From contig WGDO01000087.1 of assembly GCA_015493225.1 (NCBI GenBank), positions 514 to 64,513 on the forward strand: DNA of 64,000 bases, in the 5' to 3' direction. Made by a program: the position numbers and the translations under genes. Of the stretch, positions 1-57,421 are shown piece after piece (position 1 is the first letter of the stretch; every line of letters starts with the position of its first letter). This DNA comes from Patescibacteria group bacterium. GTDB lineage: Bacteria; Patescibacteriota; Minisyncoccia; Moranbacterales; DUUL01. The notes below the pieces were generated by a model. That model saw only the letters and a list, made by a program, of their open reading frames with translations, was not told the origin of the DNA and did no database searches.

Positions 1-639
1 ATTGATGCTTTTAGATTAGCAGAGATTGGTAAATTAGAACCTAATCTACCTAAATTCTTTGATTCTCGTGAAACCCTTAAAAACAAACGTTTTCAGTCTC
101 TTTTAAAAAATTTAGAAAAGACTAAACAAAGATTTTCAAGAAGTTTAAATGATGCTATCAAGAGTTTTGAAACCTTAGGAGTAACCATGGACTTAACTGC
201 TCTAGAGGAAGCTTTAAAATCAATAGAAACAGCTATTACAGCTTGTAGGAAGATTATAGAAGAAACAGCTGATGACTTCGCTTGTAAAATAGCGGAAACT
301 CCTGGGATCTCTCTTTTTCAAGCTTCTGTTCTTTCTACGGCTATAGCTGGCAGAGAGTTTGATAGTCGTGAAAAACTAGTTGCTTTCTTTGGTTTAGATG
401 TTAGAGCTAGACAATCTGGTAATTGGTCAGGGGCTTCTCATTTGTCTAAGAGAGGTAATGCTTACTATCGTAAAATACTCTTTCAAATTGGTTGGAGTTT
501 AAAACAACATAATGACATTTTTAAAGAGTATTATCAGAGACTGATTAATGATGGAAAGCATTATTTTACAGCTGTTATTGCTACTGCTCGTAAATTTCTT
601 TATTATTTTTTTAAGGTACGGGTTGACTTTTCCTTATAA
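1..639 (+). mobile_element. IS110-family transposase, C-terminal part (5' end truncated by the window edge)
   Basis: Frame 1 is open from nt 1 to the TAA at 637-639. The translation (...FFGLDVRARQSGNWSGASHLSKRGNAYYRKILFQIGWSLKQHNDIFKEYYQRL...) matches the Transposase_20 / IS110-IS116-IS902 C-terminal domain, including the SGKxxxxxxISKRGN signature. The N-terminal DEDD domain lies upstream of the window. Confidence 0.6.
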
Positions 640-2194: not shown

Positions 2195-3718
2195 TTACAA
2201 ATTATTATCAAGTTTAGTTTCAGTCAAGCCAAACTCAATTTGATTATACTTCAAGTTTTGCAACACTCCATATAATAACCAAAACAAAAGTGCCACTGGT
2301 CCAACAAATAGGATATTATTAAATAATCCCAACAAAACAAACTCCACAAATATTGTTAAAATAACCACCAACCAAATTCTCTCAAATCCATCTGACTTTA
2401 AATAGGCCGATCTAATTTCCCTAAAATATTGTCCCAACCCCAACAAAAATAATCCCAAGCCAATAATACCAAATTTAGAGAATACCACTAAATACGAATT
2501 ATATATTTGCTGTCGCCAAGACTCATCAAACCCACGCCAAAACCAATCAACCCCCTGTGTATTTTTAATATTATGCCAAAGAGTTAACAAATAAGTTTTT
2601 TGTCTTACCATTAAAGCTGGCTCGAATCCCGGCAAAATTAAAACAAAGACCAGCAATAAAATTAAAGTTATCCAAATAATTTTCTGCTCTCTTAATAAAA
2701 TACCCATAATTAGCAAAGCCACTCCCAAAATAATTAAAGCCATATAGGAAAAAGTTAAAATTAAGGCAGAAATTTGAATAATAAATAAAATCAAAAACAA
2801 TCTTTGTCTACTAATTTTCAATTTTAACGGAGTTTTTAAATCAACAACCTTGTTTGCACTTCTAATCTGACCATTAAATGCCGAGTCAAGGACATTCTTC
2901 AAATATGAACTACCCCTTTCCGTCCAGCTAAGGCTAGCAATGGTTGATAAATCATATTTTTGTATTAACAACATCCCCAGGGTAATTGGTATGGTAATTA
3001 GTAATAACATTGCTAAAATATTATCTCCCAATTGTAAAAATAATTTATCTCCAAAAAAACCAGTTAGTTGTCGTATTCCATCCTGGGCAGAAATATTAGC
3101 AAAAACTTCACTGGTAATACCAATACCATTATTTAATTCCAAATTAAAAATTCTAGCCAATAGACCAAATAGAGCTTGCCCAGTTCCAATCATAATAATA
3201 ATCAAAAAGAATTTTTCCAAACGTTTTCCCGTTTGAAAAAAATATTGAAAAGAAATAATAATCATTGGATAAACAACAAATACCATAACCAATTGATACA
3301 GTGTTACTTGATTAATCTCCTTACTAATATCAAATGAATTTCCAAACAAGATTAACACTCCTCCTAAAATTATTAGTCCTAACCAGTAGTAAAATAAAGG
3401 AAATAATTTAATTTTATTTTTATCCAGTAATAAATTTCCTAAACCAATAATTGCCAAAACCAAAGTAAAAATTTCTTCCAAAGACACTAAGTTATCAGCA
3501 ATATAAATAGTTGGAAAAATTGTAATAATTAAGATTGAAAAAATCCAACCGAAATGAAAACTTTTTTGAAAAATTGCTAAATTAACAAAAATAACAAACG
3601 TCAAAAAAGCCAATGTTAAATTCAAAGTAGCTACTAAAATAAAAGAAAAAGCCAATGACCCAAAAACAATAGTCATTAATTCTTTTTGCTTTTTCAGTTG
3701 TTGCCAATATCTCTGCAC
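2195..3718 (-). CDS. Polytopic membrane protein, O-antigen ligase / Wzy-type polymerase-like
   Basis: 507-aa ORF with at least 10 predicted hydrophobic helices and a large periplasmic loop. It sits in a polysaccharide/cell-wall context. The family assignment is tentative. Confidence 0.35.
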   Translation of the reverse strand: MQRYWQQLKKQKELMTIVFGSLAFSFILVATLNLTLAFLTFVIFVNLAIFQKSFHFGWIFSILIITIFPTIYIADNLVSLEEIFTLVLAIIGLGNLLLDKNKIKLFPLFYYWLGLIILGGVLILFGNSFDISKEINQVTLYQLVMVFVVYPMIIISFQYFFQTGKRLEKFFLIIIMIGTGQALFGLLARIFNLELNNGIGITSEVFANISAQDGIRQLTGFFGDKLFLQLGDNILAMLLLITIPITLGMLLIQKYDLSTIASLSWTERGSSYLKNVLDSAFNGQIRSANKVVDLKTPLKLKISRQRLFLILFIIQISALILTFSYMALIILGVALLIMGILLREQKIIWITLILLLVFVLILPGFEPALMVRQKTYLLTLWHNIKNTQGVDWFWRGFDESWRQQIYNSYLVVFSKFGIIGLGLFLLGLGQYFREIRSAYLKSDGFERIWLVVILTIFVEFVLLGLFNNILFVGPVALLFWLLYGVLQNLKYNQIEFGLTETKLDNNL

Positions 3719-4644: not shown

Positions 4645-4694
4645 TTAAGAATTTAGAGATTAAGAGTTTAGGAATTTGAAGTTATTTTTTTAGT

Positions 4695-4786
4695 CACCCC
4701 CTGTGTAAAGGGGGTCAAATTTTCTTGTCATTTTTATTTGTCAACTAGTTGACAAATAAAAATGCCAAGAAAATTTGGGGGTTTTT
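4695..4786. repeat. Long GC-clamped hairpin repeat element, family C (cacccccTGTGTAAAgggggtcaaaTT...AAtttgggggttttt)
   Basis: Perfect palindrome tcaaattttcttgtcatttttatttgtcaac-tag-ttgacaaataaaaatgccaagaaaatttg flanked by a ccccc/ggggg mini-hairpin and a GGGGG-TTTTT tail. Other copies are at 11795, 13383 and 33593. Confidence 0.8.
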
Positions 4787-7571: not shown

Positions 7572-7582
7572 CACACAAAATG

Positions 7583-7701
7583 CAAGATACAAATAACAAG
7601 ATACAAACAAATCACAATAACCAATTCTCAAAAAATATTTAAATTTTGGTTATTGAAATTTGAAATTTGTTTGTTTCTTGTTATTTGTAACTTGTATCTT
7701 G
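7583..7701. repeat. Long imperfect palindrome caagatacaa...aataaccaa / ttggttattg...ttgtatcttg (family F)
   Basis: About 120-bp inverted repeat in the def-fmt spacer. Related copies are at 22150-22250, 37283-37362 and 43621-43745. Confidence 0.7.
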
Positions 7702-9560: not shown

Positions 9561-11789
9561 ATGACAAAAAAACATACTCAAAAGAAAAAAAACAAAAAGA
9601 AAAAATCATCCACAAAAAAACAGATTTCCTCCAACAAAAAATTCTTAAAAGAAAAGCATAATAAAAAAAGTAAAAAAATAGCCGGAAAAGAAATTGAAAA
9701 AATAGCTAGAGTTCAAATAAAAAAATCATTTAAAGACCGTCGAAAAAAAGTTATTAAAACTTCCTATTTAACTTTTATTTTAGTTTTTGCTATTCTAACA
9801 GTCATTGTAATTAACCTACGCCACCTCTTTCCACCAATTAAAACTTCCATTAAAAAACCAGAACCTCTCAATCTTAAACAAATAGACAATGAGGGAGATT
9901 TTATAAAAATACAAAATAGCTTAATAAAAAAATCATCAGAAATTTCCATAAACAATGAAGAAAAATGTCAAAATAACATCTTATTCAATACCAAAAAACA
10001 ACGATTCGTTACTGTTAATAAAAAATATTTGGTAATTTTAAAAAGAGGAAAATTATTTGTAACAAATCTCACCACAAACAAATACATTAGTAAAACAGAA
10101 ATTTCTCCAATCCCCCTAAAGGAAAAAGAAGCAATTCAATATAATAATATTTATGCAACCGACAATATAATAACCGTCACCGGCTACCGTCAGGCTAAAA
10201 AAGCTTTAGAAATATCTCTATTTGAATTATCTCCCAATGGTATTCTAACAAGAAAAGAAACTTATGATTTACCAAGTAATAAATGTTCCCAAGATGCCAA
10301 AATAATTAACGACAAATTTATTAGTTACACGGCTCGTAATCTAAGAACAACTAATTATCCAACAATTTCAGAAATAAATATCTGGAATGAAAAACAAAAT
10401 ATATTTGATAATAAACACGTAAATAATAGTCAACTTTTTTATAATAACTCAAAATTAGACACTCCCTACCTACACACTATTACTACTTGCCAAATTAAAG
10501 ATTCTGTTCTAAAAGCTTGCCGTCAACAAAATTTCATTGATAATAAAATTGACACATTAACTATTGATTCCAATAATCTATATGCCTGGGTCTCTCATCA
10601 AAAGACAGATAACCAAATAAAAAGAACCCTGCCAACTTCTTTTATTTATCAAATTAATTTACAAGAACAAAGCAACCCCAAAATCATTCAAGTAGATGGA
10701 ACACCTATCAAAAACAATAAGCTCAAAGTGAGCGATGACTACCTTAAAGCAACTATTTATCAAAACAACACTACCGCTCCCACCTGGTTAACAAATTTTT
10801 CCAACAACAGCCTAGCCTTATTATCAATAAATTTAGAAGATTTTCAAAACAAAGGCCTAATTATAGATAATCCTGATAATTATCAAATGCTACCTTCTGA
10901 TATTTCCTATTCTCCGGAAAATAAATTCATCGCTCAAAATGATACTCTATTGGAAATAAATTCTGATAACTCAAAAATAAAAATTACCAAAGACAATACG
11001 TTATCCACAATTGACATTCCTGGAAAGATGCTTACCAGTTACAATATTCCAGAGCAAAATAAACTGCTTTTAATATATGTCAAAGAAAATAACTTGTATG
11101 CTAATTATTTGAATTATTCTAATAATTTTAATTTTGGTCAAGAAATTGTTCTAGCCAACAAAATAGATGAGGAAAATACAACCGTTCTTAAGGATGAAAT
11201 AAATAATTTTAATTTAACTAATAATCAATTTATTAGCCTACCAATTATCAATCAACTCAAAAATAATGGGCAACTCTATCTGCTAACAATAAATTCTGAT
11301 ACACTTGCAAAAGCTTATATTCTCAATATCAACAAAAACTTCCAGAGACTAAATGATGGTTGTCAAAATTCTTGCCAAGAAGATTGGACTAAGTTGCTTA
11401 CATTTTTTCCCAAAGAAAATTTAAATAAAATTTACAGTTTAACGGGCAGTTATTTAAAATCATTTCGCCTTCTTAATCAAAACAAACTACAACTATTACG
11501 CTCCATTAACTACACCCTAAGGCCAGCTCCACCAAAACCTCGTCGACCAAAAGCCAAAATCCCCGGTGGAGCCAAGGTAGTTAATGGAAGATATGTTTGT
11601 GCTAAAAAACATGACTATGTCGGCAAGAGTAAAAAAAATAACAAAGGTTACTTACATATGGATATGGAATGTTGCTTAGACCCAGATGAATATCCAAATC
11701 CTTGGTGTACCTATCAACCAGGAGAACTAAAAGTAACAAAGCTTCGTGCAGCAGACTACCATGGACGAGTTAAGAAAAAACATCACTAA
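9561..11789 (+). CDS. Large membrane-anchored extracytoplasmic protein with Lys-rich cytoplasmic tail and Cys-rich C-terminus (hypothetical)
   Basis: 742 aa. The N-terminal 70 aa are very basic (KKKNKKKK), followed by one TM helix and a long Asn/Ile-rich domain. The last 90 aa carry C..CC..C and a Pro/Lys-rich segment. No family recognised. Confidence 0.5.
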   Translation: MTKKHTQKKKNKKKKSSTKKQISSNKKFLKEKHNKKSKKIAGKEIEKIARVQIKKSFKDRRKKVIKTSYLTFILVFAILTVIVINLRHLFPPIKTSIKKPEPLNLKQIDNEGDFIKIQNSLIKKSSEISINNEEKCQNNILFNTKKQRFVTVNKKYLVILKRGKLFVTNLTTNKYISKTEISPIPLKEKEAIQYNNIYATDNIITVTGYRQAKKALEISLFELSPNGILTRKETYDLPSNKCSQDAKIINDKFISYTARNLRTTNYPTISEINIWNEKQNIFDNKHVNNSQLFYNNSKLDTPYLHTITTCQIKDSVLKACRQQNFIDNKIDTLTIDSNNLYAWVSHQKTDNQIKRTLPTSFIYQINLQEQSNPKIIQVDGTPIKNNKLKVSDDYLKATIYQNNTTAPTWLTNFSNNSLALLSINLEDFQNKGLIIDNPDNYQMLPSDISYSPENKFIAQNDTLLEINSDNSKIKITKDNTLSTIDIPGKMLTSYNIPEQNKLLLIYVKENNLYANYLNYSNNFNFGQEIVLANKIDEENTTVLKDEINNFNLTNNQFISLPIINQLKNNGQLYLLTINSDTLAKAYILNINKNFQRLNDGCQNSCQEDWTKLLTFFPKENLNKIYSLTGSYLKSFRLLNQNKLQLLRSINYTLRPAPPKPRRPKAKIPGGAKVVNGRYVCAKKHDYVGKSKKNNKGYLHMDMECCLDPDEYPNPWCTYQPGELKVTKLRAADYHGRVKKKHH

Positions 11790-11794
11790 TCAAA

Positions 11795-11998
11795 CACCCC
11801 CTGTGTAAAGGGGGTCAAATTCTCTCATTACTTTTATTTGTTAACATAGTTAACAAATAAAAGTAATGAGAGAATTTGGGGGGTTTTTCGATTAATTACC
11901 TAAAAACCCCCGAAGCCTGGACAAGTTCTTTTTTAACTTTCTATCGAAAGTTAAAAAAGAACTTGTCCAACCTTCCGCCCCCCCCCCTAAAAAGGGGA
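11795..11998. repeat. Composite repeat: family C hairpin element (11795-11888) followed by family D hairpin element (11903-11998)
   Basis: Family C: caccccctgtgtaaagggggtcaaattctctcattacttttatttgttaacatagttaacaaataaaagtaatgagagaatttggggggttttt. Family D: cccccgaagcctggacaagtt...aacttgtccaaccttccgccccc. Family D recurs inverted at 39645-39730. Confidence 0.8.
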
Positions 11999-12059: not shown

Positions 12060-12356
12060 TTAAAAACCAATTTTCCCACTCTTACCATTTAAATCCTCGG
12101 CTATATCGATCTTTCCAAACTGATCTTCGTAAGCTTTTAAAGTATTCTGCATCACTTCTATCATTTTTTTAAAATGCCCAGGAGAAGTGGTAATCTTTCC
12201 AACCATTTTTCCTGTTGGTGGCAAAATGTGCGCAAAAAGCAAATTAAATTCTTCTTTGTTATGTAAAATCTGCATTAGATTAGCATACTCCGCCCCCGCA
12301 ATATTATCGGAAATTTTAATCTCTTGTTGTTTAACCTGTTTATTATTTTTTGTCAT
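12060..12356 (-). CDS. DUF3467-family small protein
   Basis: 98 aa. The pattern AEYANLMQILHNKEEFNLLF...GKITTSPGHFKKMIEVMQNTLKAYEDQFGKI matches what I recall of DUF3467 (YSNxxxIxHSxxEFxxDF...LxxxLxxxIxxYExxFG). Confidence 0.5.
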   Translation of the reverse strand: MTKNNKQVKQQEIKISDNIAGAEYANLMQILHNKEEFNLLFAHILPPTGKMVGKITTSPGHFKKMIEVMQNTLKAYEDQFGKIDIAEDLNGKSGKIGF

Positions 12357-12452: not shown

Positions 12453-13397
12453 CTAATTCTTAATTATTTTTGCCCATTCTTGCAATGCCTCCTCATAATT
12501 CCGCAAAGGTTTTCTTTTTCTATTTTGCAAAACAGAAACTTCTGCTCTTTTAGCCGGACGAGGAAATTCTTCTGGACCAACCGGAATTATCTTAGTATCC
12601 AATCCGAGTATTTTATACAGAGTTTTCAATCCCTCATACCAAGTAACTGCCCCTTCATTTACAATATGATAAATTCCAAAAGGTTCATTTTCTTCTACAA
12701 TATTTTTACTTTCCAAAGCTAAATCGGGAGCATAGGTAAATTTACTTAACTCATTATCTACCGCCTTTACTTCTTTGTTTTTTTTACCCAGATCCCCCAT
12801 TACCTCAAAAAAACTCTTTTTTCCCAAAGCATTTTTACTCAATCCTCCAAATAATTTTGACAGTCTAATAATGTAATATTTTTCACCTTGCTCCTCCACT
12901 GCTTGTTCTCCTTTGTATTTTGTCCAACCATAGCGACTTAAAGGATTGGGCTGGTCTTCTTCGGAATATTGCCAATAAGGAATAGTTTCTTCTTTACCCA
13001 TATATTGGCAACCATCACAACCACTGCCACAACAATGGGGAGCTCGTTGTCCACTCCGATAAGTCGGTCTTTTACCATCAAAAACATAATCTGTTGAATA
13101 GTGCGCCAAAACAGCTTCTAGATTTTTAGCAATTTTAGCCAGTTCTCCTGGCAGTTCTGTGTTTAAAATTTTTGCCTTGGCATATTCTTCATCATCTTCT
13201 TCACAAGAATCAACCGCATTATAAGCCACCGCATTATAAATTACATCCGGCCAAACTTCTTGAATCTTTTTTCGTAAATTTTCAAAGTCTCGTACATCCA
13301 CATCATCAATGTCCCAAGCAACCACCTCATATTCCGATTTCACCCCAGGCGCCTGCCCCTCGAAGCCATTTTGGCGAAGTGGGGTAAAGGGGGTCAA
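12453..13397 (-). CDS. dTDP-4-dehydrorhamnose reductase-like protein (RmlD family). The ORF lacks the Rossmann GxxGxxG, which lies upstream in another frame across a repeat insertion
   Basis: STDYVFDG and YGWTKYKGE match the RmlD catalytic Y/K region, and NAVAYNAVD matches the RmlD NAAAYTAVD motif. The ORF starts on TTG inside family C repeat copy 13383-13435. The canonical N-terminus MQKILILGSKGMLGSELVRLYGDGF is encoded at 13403-13519 in a different frame and terminates at a TGA inside the repeat. A Cys-rich insertion (HCCGSGCDGCQY) is also present. Confidence 0.55.
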   Translation of the reverse strand: MTPFTPLRQNGFEGQAPGVKSEYEVVAWDIDDVDVRDFENLRKKIQEVWPDVIYNAVAYNAVDSCEEDDEEYAKAKILNTELPGELAKIAKNLEAVLAHYSTDYVFDGKRPTYRSGQRAPHCCGSGCDGCQYMGKEETIPYWQYSEEDQPNPLSRYGWTKYKGEQAVEEQGEKYYIIRLSKLFGGLSKNALGKKSFFEVMGDLGKKNKEVKAVDNELSKFTYAPDLALESKNIVEENEPFGIYHIVNEGAVTWYEGLKTLYKILGLDTKIIPVGPEEFPRPAKRAEVSVLQNRKRKPLRNYEEALQEWAKIIKN

Positions 13398-13435
13398 AGA
13401 TTCGAGGTCACGAGAATCTTTGGGGGTTTTTCAGT
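13383..13435. repeat. Short family C repeat copy (ggtaaagggggtcaaagattcgaggtcacgagaatctttgggggttttt) inside the rmlD-like gene
   Basis: Same conserved ends as 4695-4786 and 11795-11888 with a short palindromic core gattc-gaggtcac-gagaatc. Confidence 0.75.
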
Positions 13436-13524
13436 ATTAAAACCATCACCATACAACCGCACTAACTCCGACCCTAACATCCCCTTCGATCCTAAAATCA
13501 ATATTTTTTGCATAAATAATTATT

Positions 13525-21118: not shown

Positions 21119-22093
21119 TTATTTTTCCTTTAACGGCCTCCACCAATCCTCATTATCTTTATACCATTGGATAGTTTGGGCAGTACCCTCCTCAAAGGAA
21201 ATACTTGGCTCCCAATCCAACTCATCTTTAATCTTAGAAAAATCAATAGCATAACGCAGATCATGACCCTTTCGATCATCTACATATTCAATCATCTCTT
21301 CTCCTCTATTCATCTCCTTCAAAATTATTTTTGTAATATCCATATTTGTTTTTTCAGCATTTCCCCCAACACAATAAGTCTCACCAATCTTCCCCTCCTG
21401 AATAATTTTATTAATGGCAATGCAATGGTCTTTAACATGCAACCAATCCCGAATAGCTCCACCATTTCCATAAATGGGAATTTTTTTATCATCAATTAAA
21501 TTAGTAACAAATAGGGGGATTAATTTTTCCGGAAATTGATAGGGCCCGTAATTATTGGAACAGTTGGAAATGGTGATTGGCAAATCATGAGTGTGATAAT
21601 AAGCTCGAACCAGATGATCAGCTGAAGCCTTAGAAGCGCTATAGGGACTACGGGGATCATAACAACTCTGCTCATTAAAAGCCAGGTCATCGGGAGCCAG
21701 AGAGCCAAACACCTCATCGGTGGAAATATGATGAAATCTCACCCCACCATTATCCCGGGCCGCCTCCAGCAAATTCAAAGTTCCGTTAATGTTTGTCTTA
21801 ACAAAAATATCGCTATCTTCAATGGAGCGATCCACATGACTTTCCGCCGCAAAATGCACCACTAAGTCAATCTCTTTCATTAAATCATTCACCAACTTTT
21901 TATCCGTGATATCTCCATGCACAAATTTATAATTTGGATTATTTTCTACACTTTTTAAATTTTCCAAATTACCGGCATAAGTCAAAGCATCCAAATTAAT
22001 AATCTTGGAATCCGGATATTTTTCCAACATATAGTGAATAAAATTCGACCCAATAAATCCCGCTCCCCCCGTTACTAAAATATTTTTTTGCAT
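21119..22093 (-). CDS. rfbB: dTDP-glucose 4,6-dehydratase
   Basis: ILVTGGAGFIGSN Rossmann motif and YSASKASADH catalytic YxxxK. Confidence 0.88.
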   Translation of the reverse strand: MQKNILVTGGAGFIGSNFIHYMLEKYPDSKIINLDALTYAGNLENLKSVENNPNYKFVHGDITDKKLVNDLMKEIDLVVHFAAESHVDRSIEDSDIFVKTNINGTLNLLEAARDNGGVRFHHISTDEVFGSLAPDDLAFNEQSCYDPRSPYSASKASADHLVRAYYHTHDLPITISNCSNNYGPYQFPEKLIPLFVTNLIDDKKIPIYGNGGAIRDWLHVKDHCIAINKIIQEGKIGETYCVGGNAEKTNMDITKIILKEMNRGEEMIEYVDDRKGHDLRYAIDFSKIKDELDWEPSISFEEGTAQTIQWYKDNEDWWRPLKEK

Positions 22094-22149
22094 TTTTTAA
22101 TAATTTATTTATTAAGATATTCTATTATTGTATAACAAACAATAATTTC

Positions 22150-22250
22150 CAAGATACAAGATACAAACAAATTCCAAACACCAAATGCCAAATTTCAAAC
22201 ATTGGTTATTGAAATTTGAGATTTGTTTGTATCTTGTAATTTGTATCTTG
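22150..22250. repeat. Family F long palindrome (caagatacaagatacaaacaa...ttgtttgtatcttgtaatttgtatcttg)
   Basis: The inverted arms are separated by ccaaacaccaaatgccaaatttcaaacattggttattg. Located between rfbB and the DUF456 gene. Confidence 0.7.
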
Positions 22251-22328
22251 TTTCTTTTTCTAATACCACATCCTTATAATTAACAAACATTCAATCCCAA
22301 CCAATAAACAATTAAGTCGTAATTTCGT

Positions 22329-22811
22329 TTATACAATCTTCCACACAAAAATCCCAATAATAACCAAAGCAAAAATTATTTTCAAGACCATCCCAAAAAC
22401 AATTCCCATAATTGTACCAAAACCGGCTTTGGTTGCCGAAGAAGTTCGTTCATATTTTAAATATTCTCCCAACCAGGCACCCACAAAAGAGCCAATGAAC
22501 AAACCAAAGACACTAACCGCTATAAATCCAAAAATTCCGCCCAACAACGCCCCCAGAACTCCATACCAACTAGCCCCAAAAGTTTTTGCCCCCAGAACTC
22601 CGGCCAAAAAATCCAAAGTCATACCAATTAAGGCGATAATCCCCGTTAGAACCACCACTCCCACCGTCACCTCTTGAAAACCAGTCGCCCAACCATAAAC
22701 CAAAACACCTAACCATAAAATTGGCAACCCTGGAATAGCCGGCAAAACGACTCCCAGTAAACCTAGTGCAAATAAAAACACCACTGCAATTATTAATATT
22801 GTTGTTCCCAT
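22329..22811 (-). CDS. DUF456-family small membrane protein
   Basis: 160 aa with four TM helices rich in GxxxG and a typical DUF456-like N-terminus (PGLPILWLGVLVYGW). Confidence 0.5.
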   Translation of the reverse strand: MGTTILIIAVVFLFALGLLGVVLPAIPGLPILWLGVLVYGWATGFQEVTVGVVVLTGIIALIGMTLDFLAGVLGAKTFGASWYGVLGALLGGIFGFIAVSVFGLFIGSFVGAWLGEYLKYERTSSATKAGFGTIMGIVFGMVLKIIFALVIIGIFVWKIV

Positions 22812-22856
22812 ATAATTTTGATAATTATTTATAACAAATTTAACTTGTTATAAAAA

Positions 22857-23408
22857 TTATGTTATTAAACTTTTAAAACTAACTCCTTTTTTATCTTTCT
22901 CAGAAATTATTGGCTTGTCAATCTCATATTTATCCAACTGCCAATCTACATTTAAATCCTTATCATTCCAAGCTATCCCAACCTCTGATTCCGGATTATA
23001 CAAATTGGTACATTTATAATTAAAAATTGTATCATCCTTCAATGTGATAAACCCATGTAAAAATCCCGCCGGTATCCAAAACTGCTTTTTGTTCTCCTCG
23101 GTCAATTCTACACTTTCCCACTGACCATAGGTTGGTGAATTCGGTCGGGCATCCACTGCCACATCTAAAACCGCTCCGGTAATAACTTGCACCAACTTCC
23201 CCTGAGCATAGGGCTCTTTTTGCATATGCAACCCCCGCAAAACTCCTTTGGTTGACTTAGATAAATTATCCTGAACAAACTCTGGTTCAATACCGTCCTT
23301 TTGATAACGCTCTTTATTGTAGGTTTCCACAAAAAACCCTCTCTCATCACCAAATACATCCGGCTCAATAATCAACAATCCCTCAATTTTTGTTTTTGTA
23401 ATTTTCAT
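22857..23408 (-). CDS. rfbC: dTDP-4-dehydrorhamnose 3,5-epimerase
   Basis: IEGLLIIEPDVFGDERGFF and RGLHMQ cupin motifs. Length 183 aa. Confidence 0.88.
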   Translation of the reverse strand: MKITKTKIEGLLIIEPDVFGDERGFFVETYNKERYQKDGIEPEFVQDNLSKSTKGVLRGLHMQKEPYAQGKLVQVITGAVLDVAVDARPNSPTYGQWESVELTEENKKQFWIPAGFLHGFITLKDDTIFNYKCTNLYNPESEVGIAWNDKDLNVDWQLDKYEIDKPIISEKDKKGVSFKSLIT

Positions 23409-23607: not shown

Positions 23608-23692
23608 GGAGAGTTGCCAGAGCGGTCGAATGGGACACCCTGCTAAGGTGTTGTGCCTCCGGGTACCTAGGGTTCGAATCCCTAACTCTCCG
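23608..23692 (+). tRNA. tRNA-Ser (anticodon GCT)
   Basis: Acceptor GGAGAGT/ACTCTCC, anticodon stem ACACC/GGTGT with loop CTGCTAA, long variable arm, T arm GGTTCGAATCC. Confidence 0.8.
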
Positions 23693-23965
23693 CACTAAAG
23701 TTCGAATCATACAATCAATACTCATTATTCACTCGTATCATATTCTCCACATTAAAAAAATAAAAAGGGCTTGCTAAATGCAACCCTTTTTATTTTATTG
23801 TGATAATAAATCATAGATTATACCCCTATCTACCCCCTCCCCTACTCTCTATTCTCTACTCTCTACTATCTAGTGTCTAGTGTCTAATATCTAGTACCTA
23901 TCTCACCAACGCTTTTTGCTTAAGAGTAGAAAAATAGCTTGTAAAAGTATTTGAACCATAAAATC

Positions 23966-29441: not shown

Positions 29442-29583
29442 ATTAGTCTCACTGCAATTTTTGAATTTTTAATTGTTGCCTATTTGTACTAAACATATAT
29501 TGTTATAGCATTAAAGCTACAAAATGTCAAGTAAATTTTACTTAATATTTTTTTATTTTTAAGTAGCATTAAAACTTAAAATC

Positions 29584-29800
29584 CAAATCCACCCCTAACC
29601 ATTTTTTGTTCACGGTTCACAGTTCACAGTTCACGGTTTATTTTTTAAAAAGTTTCACAAGACAGGTGTTGGAGGGAAACTAGATAAATCCACCCCTAAC
29701 CCCTCCTTTATCCCATTACGCCAAGGCTACGCGGGACAAGCGCTGGAGGGGAACTACTATCTACCATCTACTATCTACTATCTACTATCTATCCCCCAAC
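29584..29800. repeat. Composite repeat block: aaatccacccctaacc unit, (gttcac[ag])x4, long family A unit and (ctactatc)n
   Basis: gttcacggttcacagttcacagttcacgg at 29613-29640. The unit aaatccacccctaacccctcctttatcccattacgccaaggctacgcgggacaagcgctggaggggaac is at 29686-29760. ctaccatctactatctactatctactatct is at 29761-29792 and overlaps the last codons and stop of capA-like 29785-30951. Confidence 0.8.
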
Positions 29801-33405: not shown

Positions 33406-34251
33406 TTAAAACTCCAAAAACTTCCCTTCCAAATAATTCTTAATTGGCTCGGCGGTGGTTTGGGTAATTTTCTCCGGCAAATTATCCATCGCAAACCAGC
33501 CAATCTTATCACACTTATGAGGCTCCATATTCTTTGGCTGACCACTTTTTATCTTGGCAATAAAATTTAAAGCTACCCAGTGTTCAATTTTTTCACCCCC
33601 TGTGCTGAGCCCAGCGGATGCAGGGTAAAGGGGGTCATCCCCCCTTTCGCGAAAAGGGGGATGGGGAGTTTTTATAATATGATCAGTATGAAGCAAGTAA
33701 CCAACAATCTCCACCTTAATACCCAATTCTTCTTTCATTTCCCTAATCATTGCCTTTTCTGCCGTCTCTCCGAACTTCACCCCTCCACCAGGCTTGCTCC
33801 ACCAACCAGCCTCATTACGAACTTCACCCGCCCGCCGAATTAACAAAACTTCCTTTTTATCATTAAAAATCAAACACCCTCCCCCAACACCAATGTAATC
33901 TTTACCTTTTATTAATTTAGATTGCTCTGCATTGCTAGCTTCTCCGTTAATTATGGCTACTTTATTTTTTCTATAAATAAAAACTTGCCATAAAATTATA
34001 CCCGTAGTTAAAACTCCAAGGCCTTGCCCTATAATTATTACTTTATCATTTTTTAACACTCCATAATATGCCCAAAGCAAATATGCTAGCCAGGCTATAA
34101 CCCAAAATGAAATAGACTGTCCCTCAGTCGACTTCCGTCTATAATTTTTTCTAATTTGATCTGGTAATCCAATAACTTTTACCAATATTCCGATGGCCAG
34201 TGTCAGAAATGATACAACCCCAATAAGTGTAATTGATTGTAATAATTCCAT
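33406..34251 (-). CDS. Membrane-anchored NUDIX hydrolase (3 N-terminal TM helices) carrying an in-frame family C repeat insertion
   Basis: Nudix box GGGVKFGETAEKAMIREMKEELGI. Three N-terminal hydrophobic helices. The 27-aa segment KTPHPPFRERGDDPLYPASAGLSTGGE is encoded by repeat copy 33593-33673. Confidence 0.8.
   Translation of the reverse strand: MELLQSITLIGVVSFLTLAIGILVKVIGLPDQIRKNYRRKSTEGQSISFWVIAWLAYLLWAYYGVLKNDKVIIIGQGLGVLTTGIILWQVFIYRKNKVAIINGEASNAEQSKLIKGKDYIGVGGGCLIFNDKKEVLLIRRAGEVRNEAGWWSKPGGGVKFGETAEKAMIREMKEELGIKVEIVGYLLHTDHIIKTPHPPFRERGDDPLYPASAGLSTGGEKIEHWVALNFIAKIKSGQPKNMEPHKCDKIGWFAMDNLPEKITQTTAEPIKNYLEGKFLEF
33593..33673. repeat. Family C repeat copy (81 nt, 3n) inside the NUDIX CDS
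   Basis: caccccctgtg...cagggtaaagggggtcatcccccctttcgcgaaaagggggatggggagttttt. It has the same termini as 4695-4786 and 11795-11888 and an internal ccccccttt-cgcg-aaaggggg hairpin. Confidence 0.75.
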
Positions 34252-36539: not shown

Positions 36540-36790
36540 ATTGGTTAATAAATCCACCCCCAACCCCTCCTTTACCAAAGGAGGGGAACCAAAGAAAATC
36601 CACCCCCAACCCCTCCTTTTTTAGCAAAGGGGAAATTTTCCACAGCTTCCACCCTTTGTAAAGGGGAGATTGAGGGGGGATTTTAAAACTAAATCCACCC
36701 CTAACCCCTCCTTTACAAAGGAGGGGAAATAAGGAAATCCGCCCCTAATCCCTCCTTTATTAAAGGAGGAGAACAAAAAGGAGAAACTAA
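36540..36790. repeat. Tandem array of 5-6 palindromic units (aaatccacccctaacccctcctttNNNaaaggaggggaa, plus the cccccctttgtaaagggggg attgagggggg variant)
   Basis: Units abut directly, each about 40-45 nt. Each is a stem-loop with a 10-bp GC-rich stem and contains an AAGGAGG Shine-Dalgarno-like core. Confidence 0.85.
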
Positions 36791-37111: not shown

Positions 37112-37374
37112 CCGGCCCCTACGAAAATATGAATTAATTTTAAATTTTAAGTTTTAAATTTTAAATGAGTTTTAAATTATCTAATTTTTAATATTAAATA
37201 TACAACCATCACAAAACAACAAGGCTCTGAATGATGCGTAAAATTAATAGAAATTAAAAACTTAAAATTCAAAATTAAATATTTAATCAAAATTCCAAAT
37301 TTTTCAAACATTGATTATTGGGATTTGTGATTTATTTGTTTCTTGAAATTTGTATCTTGGAAATTTATAAAATT

Positions 37375-37906
<532 letters not shown>

Positions 37907-38764: not shown

Positions 38765-38910
38765 GCTATTTCCTAGCTTCCCCCCTTTGTAAAGGGGGGA
38801 TTGAGGGGGGATTTTAAAGATTTTAAAACTAAAAAACTAAATCCACCCCTAACCCCTCCTTTATCCCACTACGCCTAAACGGCTACGCAGGACAAGCGCT
38901 AGAGGGGGAA
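38765..38910. repeat. Family B plus family A palindromic units
   Basis: cctagcttcccccctttgtaaaggggggattgaggggggatttt followed by aaatccacccctaacccctcctttatcccactacgcctaaacggctacgcaggacaagcgctagaggggg. Confidence 0.8.
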
Positions 38911-39644: not shown

Positions 39645-39730
39645 TTAAAGGGGGCGGAAGGCTGGACAAGTTATTTTTTTTACTTTCAGTAGAAAGTTAA
39701 AAAATAGCTTGTTCAGGCTTCGGGGGTTTT
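39645..39730. repeat. Family D long hairpin element (inverted relative to 11903-11998)
   Basis: gccccctttttaaagggggcggaaggctggacaagtt...actttcagtagaaagt...agcttgttcaggcttcgggggttttt. Confidence 0.8.
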
Positions 39731-43620: not shown

Positions 43621-43882
43621 GCAAATCTCAAGATACAAGTTACAAGATACAAACAATTTTCAATAACCAAATCCCAAACTTTTCAAACATTGGTTATTGG
43701 GATTTGTGATTTGTTTGTTTCTTGGTGTTTGTATCTTGGAAATTTATAAATTTGAATCCACCTCTAACCCCTCCTTTATCCCACTACGCCATCCCACTTC
43801 GCTAAAGCTACGAGGGACAAGAGGCTATGCGGGACAAGCGCCGGAGGGGAACTACTACCTACTACCTACTACCTACTACTTA
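43621..43882. repeat. Composite: family F long palindrome plus family A unit plus (ctactacc)n
   Basis: caagatacaagttacaagatacaaacaa...ttggttattgggatttgtgatttgtttgtttcttgg... then gaatccacctctaacccctcctttatcccactacgcc...ggacaagcgccggaggggaac, then ctactacctactacctactacctactact. The last supplies the stop of pilC. Confidence 0.8.
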
Positions 43883-45084
43883 ATACTCATCGCCACCTGA
43901 TAAATCGGCAACAAAATTGCTGAAACCAATATACCAACACCTATTGCCAAAACAACCATCAAAACTGGTTCAATAAGAGTAGAAAAATTCTTTACCATTC
44001 GATCCGATTCTTTCATATAAAATTCTGTCACCTTCCCCAAGGAAAAAGACATCCGTCCTGTGTGTTCACCCACTTCCACCATTTGAGTCATCACCGGCGG
44101 AATTTCCTCATAGCGATTTAAAACTTCTGATAAATTACCACCCTTTTTAATTTCCTCTGCAGCCGTCTTCACTATATATTTATAAACATTATTACCAATA
44201 ACATCCGCCGTAATAGATAAAGCCACTGTAATTGGTAAACCACTCTGCAATAAAGTACCTAAATTTTCTGAAAATCTAGCAATATAAACATTATGTAAAA
44301 TTTTACCAACAACTGGCAGTTTTAAAACCAACTGATCAAATTGATTTTTCCCATCTTCCGTTTTTAAATAATAAACAATACCAAAAATGCCCGCTCCTAC
44401 TCCAACAATAACCGCCCACCAATAATTTACCATAAAATTACTAGTCCAAATTAAAATTTTAGTTTGCAAGGGCAAATCCTCTCCAGCCTCTGTTAAGATG
44501 TCTAAAAGCTTAGGAATAACCGTTACCATCATTAAAGAACCAACTGCTATCATTGCCGTAATAATAAAAGCAGGATAATACATTGCTCCCTTTAAACTGG
44601 AAGATAATTCATAATTTCTCTCCATACTATCAGCCAATTTATTCAAAGATTCCTGCAAAGTTCCAGACGCTTCACCAGCTTTAACCATGCTAACATAAAA
44701 ATGGGAAAAAGTATCAGGATGTTTTGACATCGCTTCTGATAATGATGAACCACCATCAATATCAAACATTATAGATTTTAATTTCAAAGCAAAAAATTTA
44801 TTATCGATCTGATTAGAGATTGATTCCAAGGCAGCCAATAAAGGAACTTTTGAGTCTATTAGAGTAGCCAATTGTCGAGAAAAAATTACAAATTCTCTAG
44901 CACCAACACCTTCCCAAAGTTTAGAAACCATCATCGTCAAACTATTGGGTCTTAACTCTTTTAATTGAATATCAGAAATTCCTGAACCCAACAACAATCT
45001 TTCCGCTGCTCGCTGAGAAATAGTTTCCACTATCCCCTTTTGAACTTTACCTTCTCGATTAACGCCTTGATATTTAAAACGCAT
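43876..45084 (-). CDS. pilC: Type IV pilus inner-membrane platform protein (GspF/PilC family)
   Basis: Two GspF repeats and three TM helices. Length 402 aa. Confidence 0.85.
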   Translation of the reverse strand: MRFKYQGVNREGKVQKGIVETISQRAAERLLLGSGISDIQLKELRPNSLTMMVSKLWEGVGAREFVIFSRQLATLIDSKVPLLAALESISNQIDNKFFALKLKSIMFDIDGGSSLSEAMSKHPDTFSHFYVSMVKAGEASGTLQESLNKLADSMERNYELSSSLKGAMYYPAFIITAMIAVGSLMMVTVIPKLLDILTEAGEDLPLQTKILIWTSNFMVNYWWAVIVGVGAGIFGIVYYLKTEDGKNQFDQLVLKLPVVGKILHNVYIARFSENLGTLLQSGLPITVALSITADVIGNNVYKYIVKTAAEEIKKGGNLSEVLNRYEEIPPVMTQMVEVGEHTGRMSFSLGKVTEFYMKESDRMVKNFSTLIEPVLMVVLAIGVGILVSAILLPIYQVAMSIK

Positions 45085-45119
45085 TTTTTTATATTATTTT
45101 TTTATATTAGTTAAGTGTT

Positions 45120-45340
45120 TTAAATCCCCCTTCAATCCCCCCTTTACAAAATGGGGAAACTGTAAACACACCCCTTCTCAAAAAGAAGAAACTAAAAATG
45201 GATTTCCTTAGTTCCCCTCCGGCACTTGTCCCGCGTAGCCTTGGCGCAGTGGGATAAAGGAGGGGTTAGGGGTGGATTTCCTTAGTTCCCCTCCTTTGTA
45301 AAGAAGGGGTTAGGGGTGGATTTTAAAAAATAAATAATCC
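45120..45340. repeat. Family B and A palindromic units in reverse orientation
   Basis: aaatcccccttcaatcccccctttacaaaatggggaaa is the rc of the family B unit. ggatttccttagttcccctccggcacttgtcccgcgtagccttggcgcagtgggataaaggaggggttaggggtggattt is the rc of the long family A unit. Confidence 0.8.
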
Positions 45341-55500: not shown

Positions 55501-55770
55501 TAGTTCACAGTTCACAGTTCACGGTTCACAGTTTCTTTCCTAGCTTCCCCTCTTTGCAAAGGGGGGATTGAGGGGAATTTCCATGGCTTCCTCCCCCCTT
55601 TGTAAAGGGGGGATTGAGGGGGGATTTTAAGAATTTTAAGTTTTAAATTTTTCTGCCCCAGACGGACCAGCCTGGAGCTAGAAATTTCACGAATTAGTTG
55701 AAATCCACCCCTAACCCCTCCTTTGAGAAAGGAGGGGAACTACTTATCTACTATCTACTATCTACCCCTC
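55501..55770. repeat. Composite: (gttcac[ag])x4, two family B units, one family A unit and (ctactatc)n
   Basis: gttcacagttcacagttcacggttcacag. cctagcttcccctctttgcaaaggggggattgagggg and cccccctttgtaaaggggggattgaggggggatttt. aaatccacccctaacccctcctttgagaaaggaggggaactacttatctactatctactatctac. The last overlaps the ppaC stop. Confidence 0.85.
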
Positions 55771-56673
55771 AAACACTGGCACAATCTGTTTCTTCCTAGA
55801 AACCAATTTATCCACAAATAAAATCCCGTTCTGATCTTCAGCGGAAAATAATTCGGTGAATAATTTTTTGGCTTCTTCATCGGAGTAAAGCGTATAGGAT
55901 TTTTCATTAAGAATATCAACGATTGTAAAATAAACTGCCTTCAAGTTATCTTTTTCTTTTATCTCAGCCAGTTTTTCAAAAATTTCTTCCCTTCTTTTCA
56001 AACCAAAATCAACATCCGTTGTTTCCATCACCCCAATTCCATATTTTCCATCCTTAAAATTAAACTCCTTATAATCCAACCTAATTAAATTCTCCGTAGA
56101 AATATCCCCTAAATCACTTTTAGCTTTAAACATTTCCAAACTAAATTGTTCCAAATCTTCCAATCCCACTATTTCGTTCAATCCTTCCACTAATTTCTTA
56201 TCAGTATCGGTAGTAGTTGGTGAACGAAAAAACAAAGTATCAGAAATAATACCCGCCAATAACAAACTAGCGATTTTTTTGTCCAAATCAATACCCTCAG
56301 AAAAATATTTTTCTGCAACAATTGAACAAGACGACCCAAGTGGTTTAACGCAAATTGAAATTGGTTTATCCGTCTTCAGGTCAACCTTATGATGATCAAT
56401 AACTTCCACCAAACTCAATTCGGCTAAATTATCTATGGCCTGCCCAACTTCATTATGATCCAATAAGACAACTTCTGAACCAGCTTCTAACTCAGAAATT
56501 ATTTCTGGTCTTTTCATATCAAATTTATCAAACACAAATTGTGTTTCTTTATTCAACTCCCCTAGGGCAAAAGCTTGTGCTTCTTCGCCTTGCTGTTTCA
56601 AATATTCAGCATAGGCTACCGCACTACACACCGAATCAGTATCCGGATTTTTATGACCAATTACATTTTTCAT
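55762..56673 (-). CDS. ppaC: Manganese-dependent inorganic pyrophosphatase (family II, DHH/DHHA2)
   Basis: N-terminal GHKNPDTDSVCSAVAYA, DHH motif LLDHNE, C-terminal DHHA2 domain. About 300 aa, as for PpaC. Confidence 0.8.
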   Translation of the reverse strand: MKNVIGHKNPDTDSVCSAVAYAEYLKQQGEEAQAFALGELNKETQFVFDKFDMKRPEIISELEAGSEVVLLDHNEVGQAIDNLAELSLVEVIDHHKVDLKTDKPISICVKPLGSSCSIVAEKYFSEGIDLDKKIASLLLAGIISDTLFFRSPTTTDTDKKLVEGLNEIVGLEDLEQFSLEMFKAKSDLGDISTENLIRLDYKEFNFKDGKYGIGVMETTDVDFGLKRREEIFEKLAEIKEKDNLKAVYFTIVDILNEKSYTLYSDEEAKKLFTELFSAEDQNGILFVDKLVSRKKQIVPVFEG

Positions 56674-57240: not shown

Positions 57241-57336
57241 AGTTTTAATATACATATTTCTATTTCGCTCAAAGCGGAGAGAGCGGGATTTTCACCTCCC
57301 GTTTAGGGAGGCCGAACCCTTGTCTAACAAATGCTG

Positions 57337-57421
57337 CGGAGAGAGCGGGATTCGAACCCACGGTACCTTACGGCACACATCGTTTCCAACGATGCGCATT
57401 CGACCACTCTGCCATCTCTCC
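57337..57421 (-). tRNA. tRNA-Ser (anticodon GGA)
   Basis: Reverse complement: GGAGAGA acceptor, anticodon stem CATCG/CGATG with loop TTGGAAA, long variable arm, T arm GGTTCGAATCC. Confidence 0.8.

Follow-up and report, generated by a model that had tools for sequence, protein, structure and literature searches.

One-base difference in a translated palindromic repeat at the frame break of an rmlD-like gene in a Patescibacteria genome

We analyzed a stretch of 64,000 nucleotides (nt) of a Patescibacteria genome (contig WGDO01000087.1, assembly GCA_015493225.1; hereafter the window), in which an rmlD-like gene on the minus strand is divided between two reading frames at a GC-rich palindromic repeat element. 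Our results showed that the break lies in a run of five cytosines (C5) at 13422..13426, where the intact relatives P0005 and P0006, carrying the same element, have six (C6), and that in these relatives the element is read in frame as part of the protein. The explanation that we prefer, with a probability of about 0.55, is a real and very recent one-base contraction of this run, possibly leaky in its effect.

The initial annotation had assigned the Rossmann N-terminus and the catalytic body of the protein to different frames, and both minus-strand open reading frames (ORFs) were indeed found. The N-terminal ORF, of 39 amino acids (aa), runs from an ATG at 13513 to a TGA at 13396-13394 and encodes MQKILILGSKGMLGSELVRLYGDGFNTEKPPKILVTSNL before the stop; the limits first given to it, 13519-13403, were corrected to 13513..13394. 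It contains strand β1, the GSKGMLG glycine-rich loop and helix αA, and then repeat sequence up to the TGA. The body ORF (12453..13397, minus strand, 314 aa) starts at a TTG at 13397, is shifted to the −1 (= +2) frame with respect to the N-terminal ORF and contains NAVAYNAVD, STDYVFDG and YGWTKYKGE. Its initial 21 or so codons are repeat sequence, and the part homologous to RmlD begins at EYEVVAWD (about 13334). Both the stop of the N-terminal frame and the TTG of the body fall inside the repeat, as had been claimed, and this repeat is GC-rich in a window of 34% GC. The two frames are both open across about 36 nt (13430..13394), and each ORF is called as a separate gene in public assemblies.

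Taken alone, the body matched Pfam RmlD_sub_bind over profile positions 21-282 (E value 4e-56, 190.6 bits). When the N-terminal piece was joined to it, the match reached profile position 2 and rose to 208.7 bits, both scores being above the gathering cut-off of 27 bits. Because the junction extends and raises the Pfam match, and because the N-terminal ORF agrees fully with the closest intact homologs over residues 1-18, the two-frame split is not a chance arrangement.

Comparison with the orthologous locus in relatives, which the initial annotation had proposed, showed the same site to be either empty or occupied in frame. The closest homologs are Moranbacteria and Patescibacteria proteins, 74-93% identical to the body, and every one is a single ORF; this holds for 120 of the 120 homologs listed, and the two-frame arrangement was seen in no ortholog. 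P0005, P0006 and P0008 are intact proteins of 340 aa with the same element in frame at the same site, reading NTEKPPKDSRDLESLTPFTQGV, which corresponds to the N-terminal frame of the window up to KPP and to its body frame thereafter. In P0001, P0127, P0128 and P0129, a different member of the repeat family is present in frame at this site, and in the closest relative, P0124 (93% identical), the site is empty.

The ortholog DNA was then aligned, with five occupied and three empty sites. Where the window reads GAAAAACC-CCCAAAGAT, P0005 and P0006 read GAAAAACCCCCCAAAGAT, and the run that is C5 in the window (minus strand) is C6 in both of them and also in the in-frame copy of L011. All other length differences between the window and the orthologs are multiples of 3, namely a shared 60-nt insert and a window-only net 30 nt. 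The net insert in the window, measured between GAAAAA and TATGAGG, is 95 nt (3n+2). This alignment places the break at one C missing from the run 13426-13422, and the 3n+2 net length arises from that base only. The window and its in-frame relatives are thus set apart by just the kind of 1-nt discrepancy that had been suspected. The earlier proposal that a repeat of 3n+2 length, about 53 nt, explains the frameshift was therefore right about the net length but not about the element as the cause, since the intact orthologs translate the same element in frame; the composite element is also larger than proposed (13431..13340). Similarly, the view of the locus as a pseudogene made by insertion holds in so far as the Rossmann N-terminus and what follows it in the gene are parted by an inserted repeat, whereas the insertion does not in itself seem to account for the frameshift.

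The element extends over 13340..13431 on the minus strand, is inserted in the codons of the αA-β2 loop and is absent from the empty-site orthologs. It is a composite palindrome in which an A-run and the C-run (AAAAACCCCC[C]) are followed by a first hairpin, and then by a second one with an expanded loop. According to the fold, hairpin 1 (13395..13422, minus strand) is formed by CAAAGATTC and GAATCTTTG around a 10-nt loop. Its arms differ among copies but stay complementary, over 9 to 30 base pairs (bp), with 9 bp in the coding copies. Hairpin 2 is the conserved core (13342..13394, minus strand; ACCCCC TTTAC ... GGGGT), with the conserved form GACCCCCTTTAC-ACA-GGGGGTG, and contains the TGA that closes the N-terminal frame. 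Its sequence GACCCCCTTTACACAGGGGGTG recurs at 4694-4786, 11795-11888 and 33593-33673 of the window and in L001-L004, L008, L011 and L019. Nested in its loop is a 37-nt module (CCCACTTCGCCAAAATGGCTTCGAGGGGCAGGCGCCT; 13347..13383, minus strand), amounting to a net gain of 30 nt over P0005 and homologous to the "long form" loop of the commonest repeat family of the window (…CCTCCTTTATCCCACTACGCCAAGGCTACGCGGGACAAGCGCTGGAGGGG). Short and long loops also form pairs elsewhere, in P0128 versus P0001 (30 nt), in P0135 versus P0131 and the NUDIX protein of the window (21 nt), and at an orthologous intergenic position, 11795-11888 of the window versus L019. In L019, from a close relative (GCA_026990205.1), the hairpin-2 copy at 3455-3500 has a 21-nt loop module, CATGCATTCGCTGGACTTCGT, resembling that of the NUDIX copy of the window, and the loop is short in the window's ortholog of this intergenic copy. 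Two of the three frames of the element are open, and the TGA that closes the third, in TTTGACCCCC, is the one at which the 39-aa ORF ends.

This architecture is present in four copies in the window, with further copies in L001-L004, L008, L010 and L011, and the commonest repeat family, which is related to it, has at least 12 copies in the window. The elements folded with z-scores from -2.3 to -13. In two intergenic copies on the minus strand, 4694..4786 (C5, z = -8.9) and 11795..11888 (C6, z = -13), hairpin 1 is a 30-bp perfect AT-rich palindrome. The second of these sits between the convergent 3′ ends of a 742-aa ORF (9561..11789, plus strand) and a DUF3467 gene (12060..12356, minus strand), and may act as a terminator. 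Although synonymous sites are saturated between the window and P0005 (synonymous divergence, dS, about 1.8), the DNA of the element shows about 98% identity there; the copies in L001 and L011, in two different host genes, are 100% identical to each other. Since such identity of about 98-100% coexists with saturated synonymous sites, the comparison points to a recent spread or homogenisation of the element.

Rfam showed no family at the element. Neither a target-site duplication nor a terminal inverted repeat could be cleanly defined; the insertions follow a GAAAA(A/G) run, and their 3′ flanks are A-rich. Among the window ORFs we found no RAYT/Y1 or other transposase matching the element. The only transposase of the window is an IS110-family fragment, a 150-aa ORF at 187-639 (plus strand) that matches the C-terminal Transposase_20 domain only, and which is either a fragment or cut off by the window edge. 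A search of the window for exact or near-exact copies of the 45-nt junction repeat returned only the repeat itself, the family link being seen only through shorter cores. With a 73-aa query made of concatenated translated modules, there were no word-sharing candidates in the protein database, and an exhaustive comparison of the 34-aa window peptide with representative proteins gave only chance matches, to Sel1-like and ankyrin repeat proteins. A metagenome scan with the hairpin-1 core returned three contigs only, and the best match in a scan of genome contigs was 84% identical.

The element is also read in frame in other, unrelated genes. In L011, it lies in frame in an ORF for a thiamine pyrophosphate (TPP) enzyme (…NQKPPKDSRDLESLTPFTQGVVPKF…), with C6. 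In L008, it is in frame in the inter-domain linker of a rhodanese-GH114 gene, where comparison with the L006 ortholog gives a clean 17-aa occupied/empty pair. Within the window, the copy at 33593..33673 (minus strand) is intact and in frame, encodes KTPHPPFRERGDDPLYPASAGLSTGGEK and falls within the NUDIX domain of the ORF 33406..34251, in which the NUDIX match covers 146 residues for 125 profile positions. This element is present in the NUDIX gene of close relatives too, with a loop 21 nt shorter in P0135. The host ORF at 33406-34251 (minus strand) itself encodes 281 aa, in which an MtN3/PQ-loop membrane domain is fused to NUDIX, and its NUDIX relatives of >90% identity are 162-169 aa long and start with MQKGK; the arrangement may come from a fusion of genes, or from the loss of a start or stop codon in this genome. 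Every other coding copy found, apart from that of the rmlD-like gene of the window, is in frame.

At the rmlD site, proteins >90% identical to one another present four states: empty, the commonest family in its short form, the same family in its long form, and the form of the window. In the AlphaFold model of P0005, the insert (residues 27-48) has a predicted local distance difference test (pLDDT) value <50, for a whole-model mean of 89.9. It lies between helix 12-25 (αA) and strand 52-57 (β2) and is the only long low-confidence segment; mapped onto PDB 1vl0, it falls between residues 30 and 35. The model thus depicts the element in intact genes as simply translated into a disordered surface loop.

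These data allow a sequence of events to be proposed for the window. The αA-β2 surface loop would have been colonised by a small GC-rich palindromic element, as in several relatives, and a slipped-strand contraction of the homopolymer beside the hairpin, which is the simplest route, would have shortened C6 to C5. The ribosome would then be moved into the one closed frame of the element and would stop at the TGA in TTTGACCCCC (13396-13394), leaving the remainder of the gene in the −1 frame, as a very young pseudogene or a hypomorph. The loss of function may be incomplete because the contraction itself, by turning CCC CCC AAA G into CCC CCA AAG, creates the heptamer C_CCA_AAG (X_XXY_YYZ; 13418..13424, minus strand, in the N-terminal frame), inside the two-frame overlap. 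A fraction of ribosomes slipping by −1 at this site would regenerate the exact ancestral protein, with ...EKPPKDSRD..., the peptide encoded by the intact relatives. C_CCA_AAG is described as a highly shift-prone −1 site in Escherichia coli (PMC5009743). The production of some full-length protein by −1 slippage is plausible.

We infer that the C5 allele is real and recent. Its DNA is identical over 2,958 nt in the Logan assembly of SRR10312499, in which the same two genes are called, and along 3,945 nt of a contig from an NCBI metagenome-assembled genome (JALUMK010000042.1, GCA_027039935.1). The exact 314-aa and 39-aa products are on record at NCBI, Logan and ENA, the longest contig being 65,229 nt. 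A sequencing or consensus artefact, in which the true run would be C6 and the gene a single intact ORF of 353 aa, is unlikely in our view but the most serious competitor. When a genome has 34% GC, the undercalling of one base in a homopolymer within a GC-rich hairpin is a classic type of error. The in-frame copies of the same element carry C6, in P0005 and P0006 as well as in another gene in L011, and the frame-corrected protein is perfectly conserved, with no private substitutions at otherwise invariant columns and a ratio of nonsynonymous to synonymous divergence (dN/dS) of 0.03-0.07 for the body (0.033 against the nearest relative for which DNA was available). However, two differently built assemblies share the C5 DNA, and a third contig size is on record. 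C5 and C6 are both present among the intergenic copies of this genome, so that C5 is also found outside the gene. In addition, when the 353-aa product that an intact gene would encode was looked up as an exact sequence among about 15 billion proteins, there was no record of it. The assembly appears free of widespread indel errors, since about 50 annotated ORFs in the window have full-length domain matches and no other gene is split or frame-broken, despite >300 A/T runs of at least 6 nt and 20 C/G runs of at least 6 nt.

The scenario of the initial annotation, in which a 3n+2 copy would have made the pseudogene at the time of its insertion, is rather improbable; the donor could then have been a C5 copy such as 4694-4786. 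The net insert of 95 nt is indeed 3n+2, a C5 copy exists in the same genome, and the empty site in P0124 means that the element may be a recent arrival in the lineage. Against it, the same element with the same AATACTGAAAAA 5′ junction is in frame in P0005 and P0008, which suggests that the in-frame state preceded the break, and the other coding copies found are all in frame. Moreover, the nested net 30 nt were gained without further frame damage, a hint that the frame was under selection for some time.

Several observations weigh against a real and leaky contraction. As regards the leaky part, folding revealed no frameshift stimulator downstream of the heptamer, stable pairing beginning >20 nt away with a z-score of about 0, and the shift-proneness is described for E. 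coli and may not hold for this host. As regards the allele itself, the agreeing assemblies may share one read set, in which a systematic miscall at the level of reads may occur at a GC-rich hairpin and homopolymer, and the lack of decay of the gene fits a very recent break or an artefact alike. A later contraction and the insertion of a donor copy that was already C5 would look the same on this evidence, and another reductase, encoded elsewhere in the genome, may cover the function; among the proteins of the 64-kb window, no second RmlD-type protein was found.

We regard as quite improbable that the locus is a site of programmed −1 frameshifting at C_CCA_AAG, or of a reversible phase variation of the reductase through its C-run. 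The X_XXY_YYZ heptamer does stand in the correct frame inside the 36-nt overlap, it is the one described as highly shift-prone in E. coli (PMC5009743), and its −1 product is the ancestral protein; the gene is without decay, and the length of the C-run varies among copies. Yet no stable structure starts 5-10 nt downstream, hairpin 1 includes the heptamer itself, and the orthologs, all single-frame, do not share the arrangement. For these reasons, programmed −1 frameshifting is not supported. C5 and C6 are also short for a contingency tract, and no C6 allele of the gene is on record. A bolder variant, which we consider a long shot, is that the element delivers a slippage-prone A5-C6-A3 tract acting as a switch of its host gene, changes of the C-run turning it off and on and the contracted CCC CCA AAG being partly rescued by −1 slippage. 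If this were true, the split rmlD-like gene would be one state of an expression switch delivered by the element and not a dead gene.

Finally, the possibility that the protein functions as two pieces or from an internal TTG or GTG start, raised by the initial annotation, can be dismissed as very improbable: both ORFs are intact and called as genes, but the 314-aa piece lacks β1, the GxxGxxG loop and αA (profile positions 1-20), no Shine-Dalgarno-like sequence was seen in the few bases before TTG 13397, and no homolog is split. To our knowledge, β1, the GxxGxxG loop and αA bind the dinucleotide in all extended short-chain dehydrogenases/reductases (SDRs), and since they are missing, the 314-aa piece alone should not bind it.

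The host protein is best called RmlD-like, that is, an extended SDR reductase, and not a proven RmlD, because the frame-corrected protein falls below the equivalog cut-off of NCBIfam TIGR01214 (198.1 bits versus 224.05), its match being broken into two stretches by clade inserts. It resembles RmlD (dTDP-4-dehydrorhamnose reductase; PF04321, TIGR01214; PDB 1vl0, 1kbz) in that the joined pieces match the full Pfam profile, that the catalytic Y195 and K199 of YGWTK are invariant in an alignment of 22 sequences, and that rmlB and rmlC are in the same window. The GSKGMLG sequence (GxxGxxG dinucleotide-binding motif) is present too, but in the separate 39-aa ORF. Unlike RmlD, the clade has a Cys-rich insert of roughly 35 residues (HCCGSGCDGCQY) after STDYVFDG, at about 13000-13080 of the window (minus strand). 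This insert is kept across the whole clade, with three Cys invariant in the 22 sequences, and has no counterpart in the solved structures of RmlD. It may form a loop that binds metal, and because of it the family is not plain RmlD.

The gene context differs as well. The rmlD-like gene is unlinked to the rml genes, and its recurring neighbours are DUF3467, rhodanese and NUDIX genes; in the window it is followed by the DUF3467 gene (12060..12356, minus strand). The initial annotation had described rmlB and rmlC as nearby and intact, and their intactness was borne out: rmlB (21119..22093) and rmlC (22857..23408), both on the minus strand, have their Pfam matches and exceed their NCBIfam equivalog cut-offs. 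They are separated by a DUF456 gene (within 21119..23408).

Other repeats are dispersed in the window. Clusters of the commonest family (AAATCCACCCCTAACCCCTCCTTT…), with short and long forms, were found at 29575-29800, 36540-36770, 37365-37460, 38779-38907, 43740-43894, 45100-45335 and 55546-55772. All of them are intergenic; several precede tandem runs of (TATCTAC)n-like heptamers, and many are located around the RNase P RNA and pilus genes. The latter form a type IV pilus / pseudopilin cluster at about 38.9-51.1 kb (minus strand), with several N_methyl pilins, a PilD-type peptidase, T2SSF, two T2SSE ATPases, PilM and PilO, and with repeat copies between its genes. A 56-nt inverted repeat pair of similar design (AAAACCCCC, long hairpin, C/G run) is present at 11903-11958 and 39675-39730, its arms being 89% complementary and the arm at 11903-11958 adjoining a G10 run. 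A separate AT-rich family (CAAGATACAAGATACAAACAAAT…) occurs as closely spaced inverted pairs at 7576-7700, 22136-22256, 37303-37365 and 43622-43744. ARAGORN also predicted a tRNA-Ser(gct) at 23608-23693 (plus strand) that was not listed by Rfam at the gathering threshold, and that is 72% complementary to the tRNA-Ser at 57336-57421.

Known systems offer several points of comparison. The possible rescue of the rmlD-like gene is similar to the compensatory ("corrective") frameshifting described at homopolymer indels (PMC5009743): after a one-base run indel, tRNAs can pair anew in the −1 frame, and a minority of ribosomes would restore the original protein. The heptamer is also the one described as highly shift-prone in E. 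coli. Here, in contrast, stimulatory structure and conservation are both lacking, so that slippage would be at most adventitious and not programmed.

As for the element, the REP (repetitive extragenic palindromic) sequences with their bacterial interspersed mosaic elements (BIMEs), and the repeats of the MITE type (miniature inverted-repeat transposable elements), are likewise small, GC-rich, multi-copy stem-loops at gene ends, with possible roles in termination or mRNA stability, and REPs are extragenic by definition (PMC3733652, PMC3184786, PMC10969869). Our element differs from REPs in being found within ORFs as well, and the copies that were read showed no GTAG/CGTC tag, no dedicated search having been made for it. 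It differs from MITE-type repeats in having no clear terminal inverted repeats or target-site duplication, with no RAYT or matching transposase in the window. Membership of either class is thus not established. The GC clusters of yeast mitochondria are another parallel, being GC-rich mobile palindromes in an AT-rich genome, mostly intergenic but in frame in VAR1, and polymorphic for presence or absence among strains. They are organellar and not bacterial, and there is no evidence of shared sequence or mechanism.

In the searchable literature, we found no description of such elements in the candidate phyla radiation (CPR), Patescibacteria or Moranbacteria. There is nothing unusual in the broken gene as such, and the moderate interest of the case is in the in-frame repeat family. 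The locus ought not to be annotated as a gene that a repeat has destroyed, because translation through the repeat is its normal state and the fault lies in one homopolymer base. It offers a tractable case for following the movement and tolerance of an element, and for asking how often frame errors are reported as split genes by gene callers.

The closest likeness in architecture and behaviour is to the Rickettsia palindromic elements (RPEs), which are selfish palindromic repeats lying in frame within protein-coding genes (PMC10969869). Like RPEs, the present element is a short, hairpin-forming, dispersed repeat that occurs between genes and inside unrelated metabolic genes, is translated with the host protein and is tolerated in surface loops, in small, host-dependent, AT-rich genomes; the in-frame copies in unrelated genes, the empty sites in orthologs and the loop-compatible insert all agree with this likeness. 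It differs from RPEs in its size (about 50-95 nt versus about 100-150 nt), in being GC-rich in an AT-rich genome, and in its modular design, with a variable hairpin 1, a conserved hairpin 2 and optional 21-37-nt modules in the hairpin-2 loop. It also uses two frames in different hosts, has one site with four allelic states among proteins >90% identical, and belongs to another phylum, in Patescibacteria / Moranbacteria. Sitting between genes and in frame in at least 4 unrelated enzymes, the rmlD-like one included, it brings the Rickettsia phenomenon of selfish DNA in coding genes to a different lineage that also has a reduced genome.

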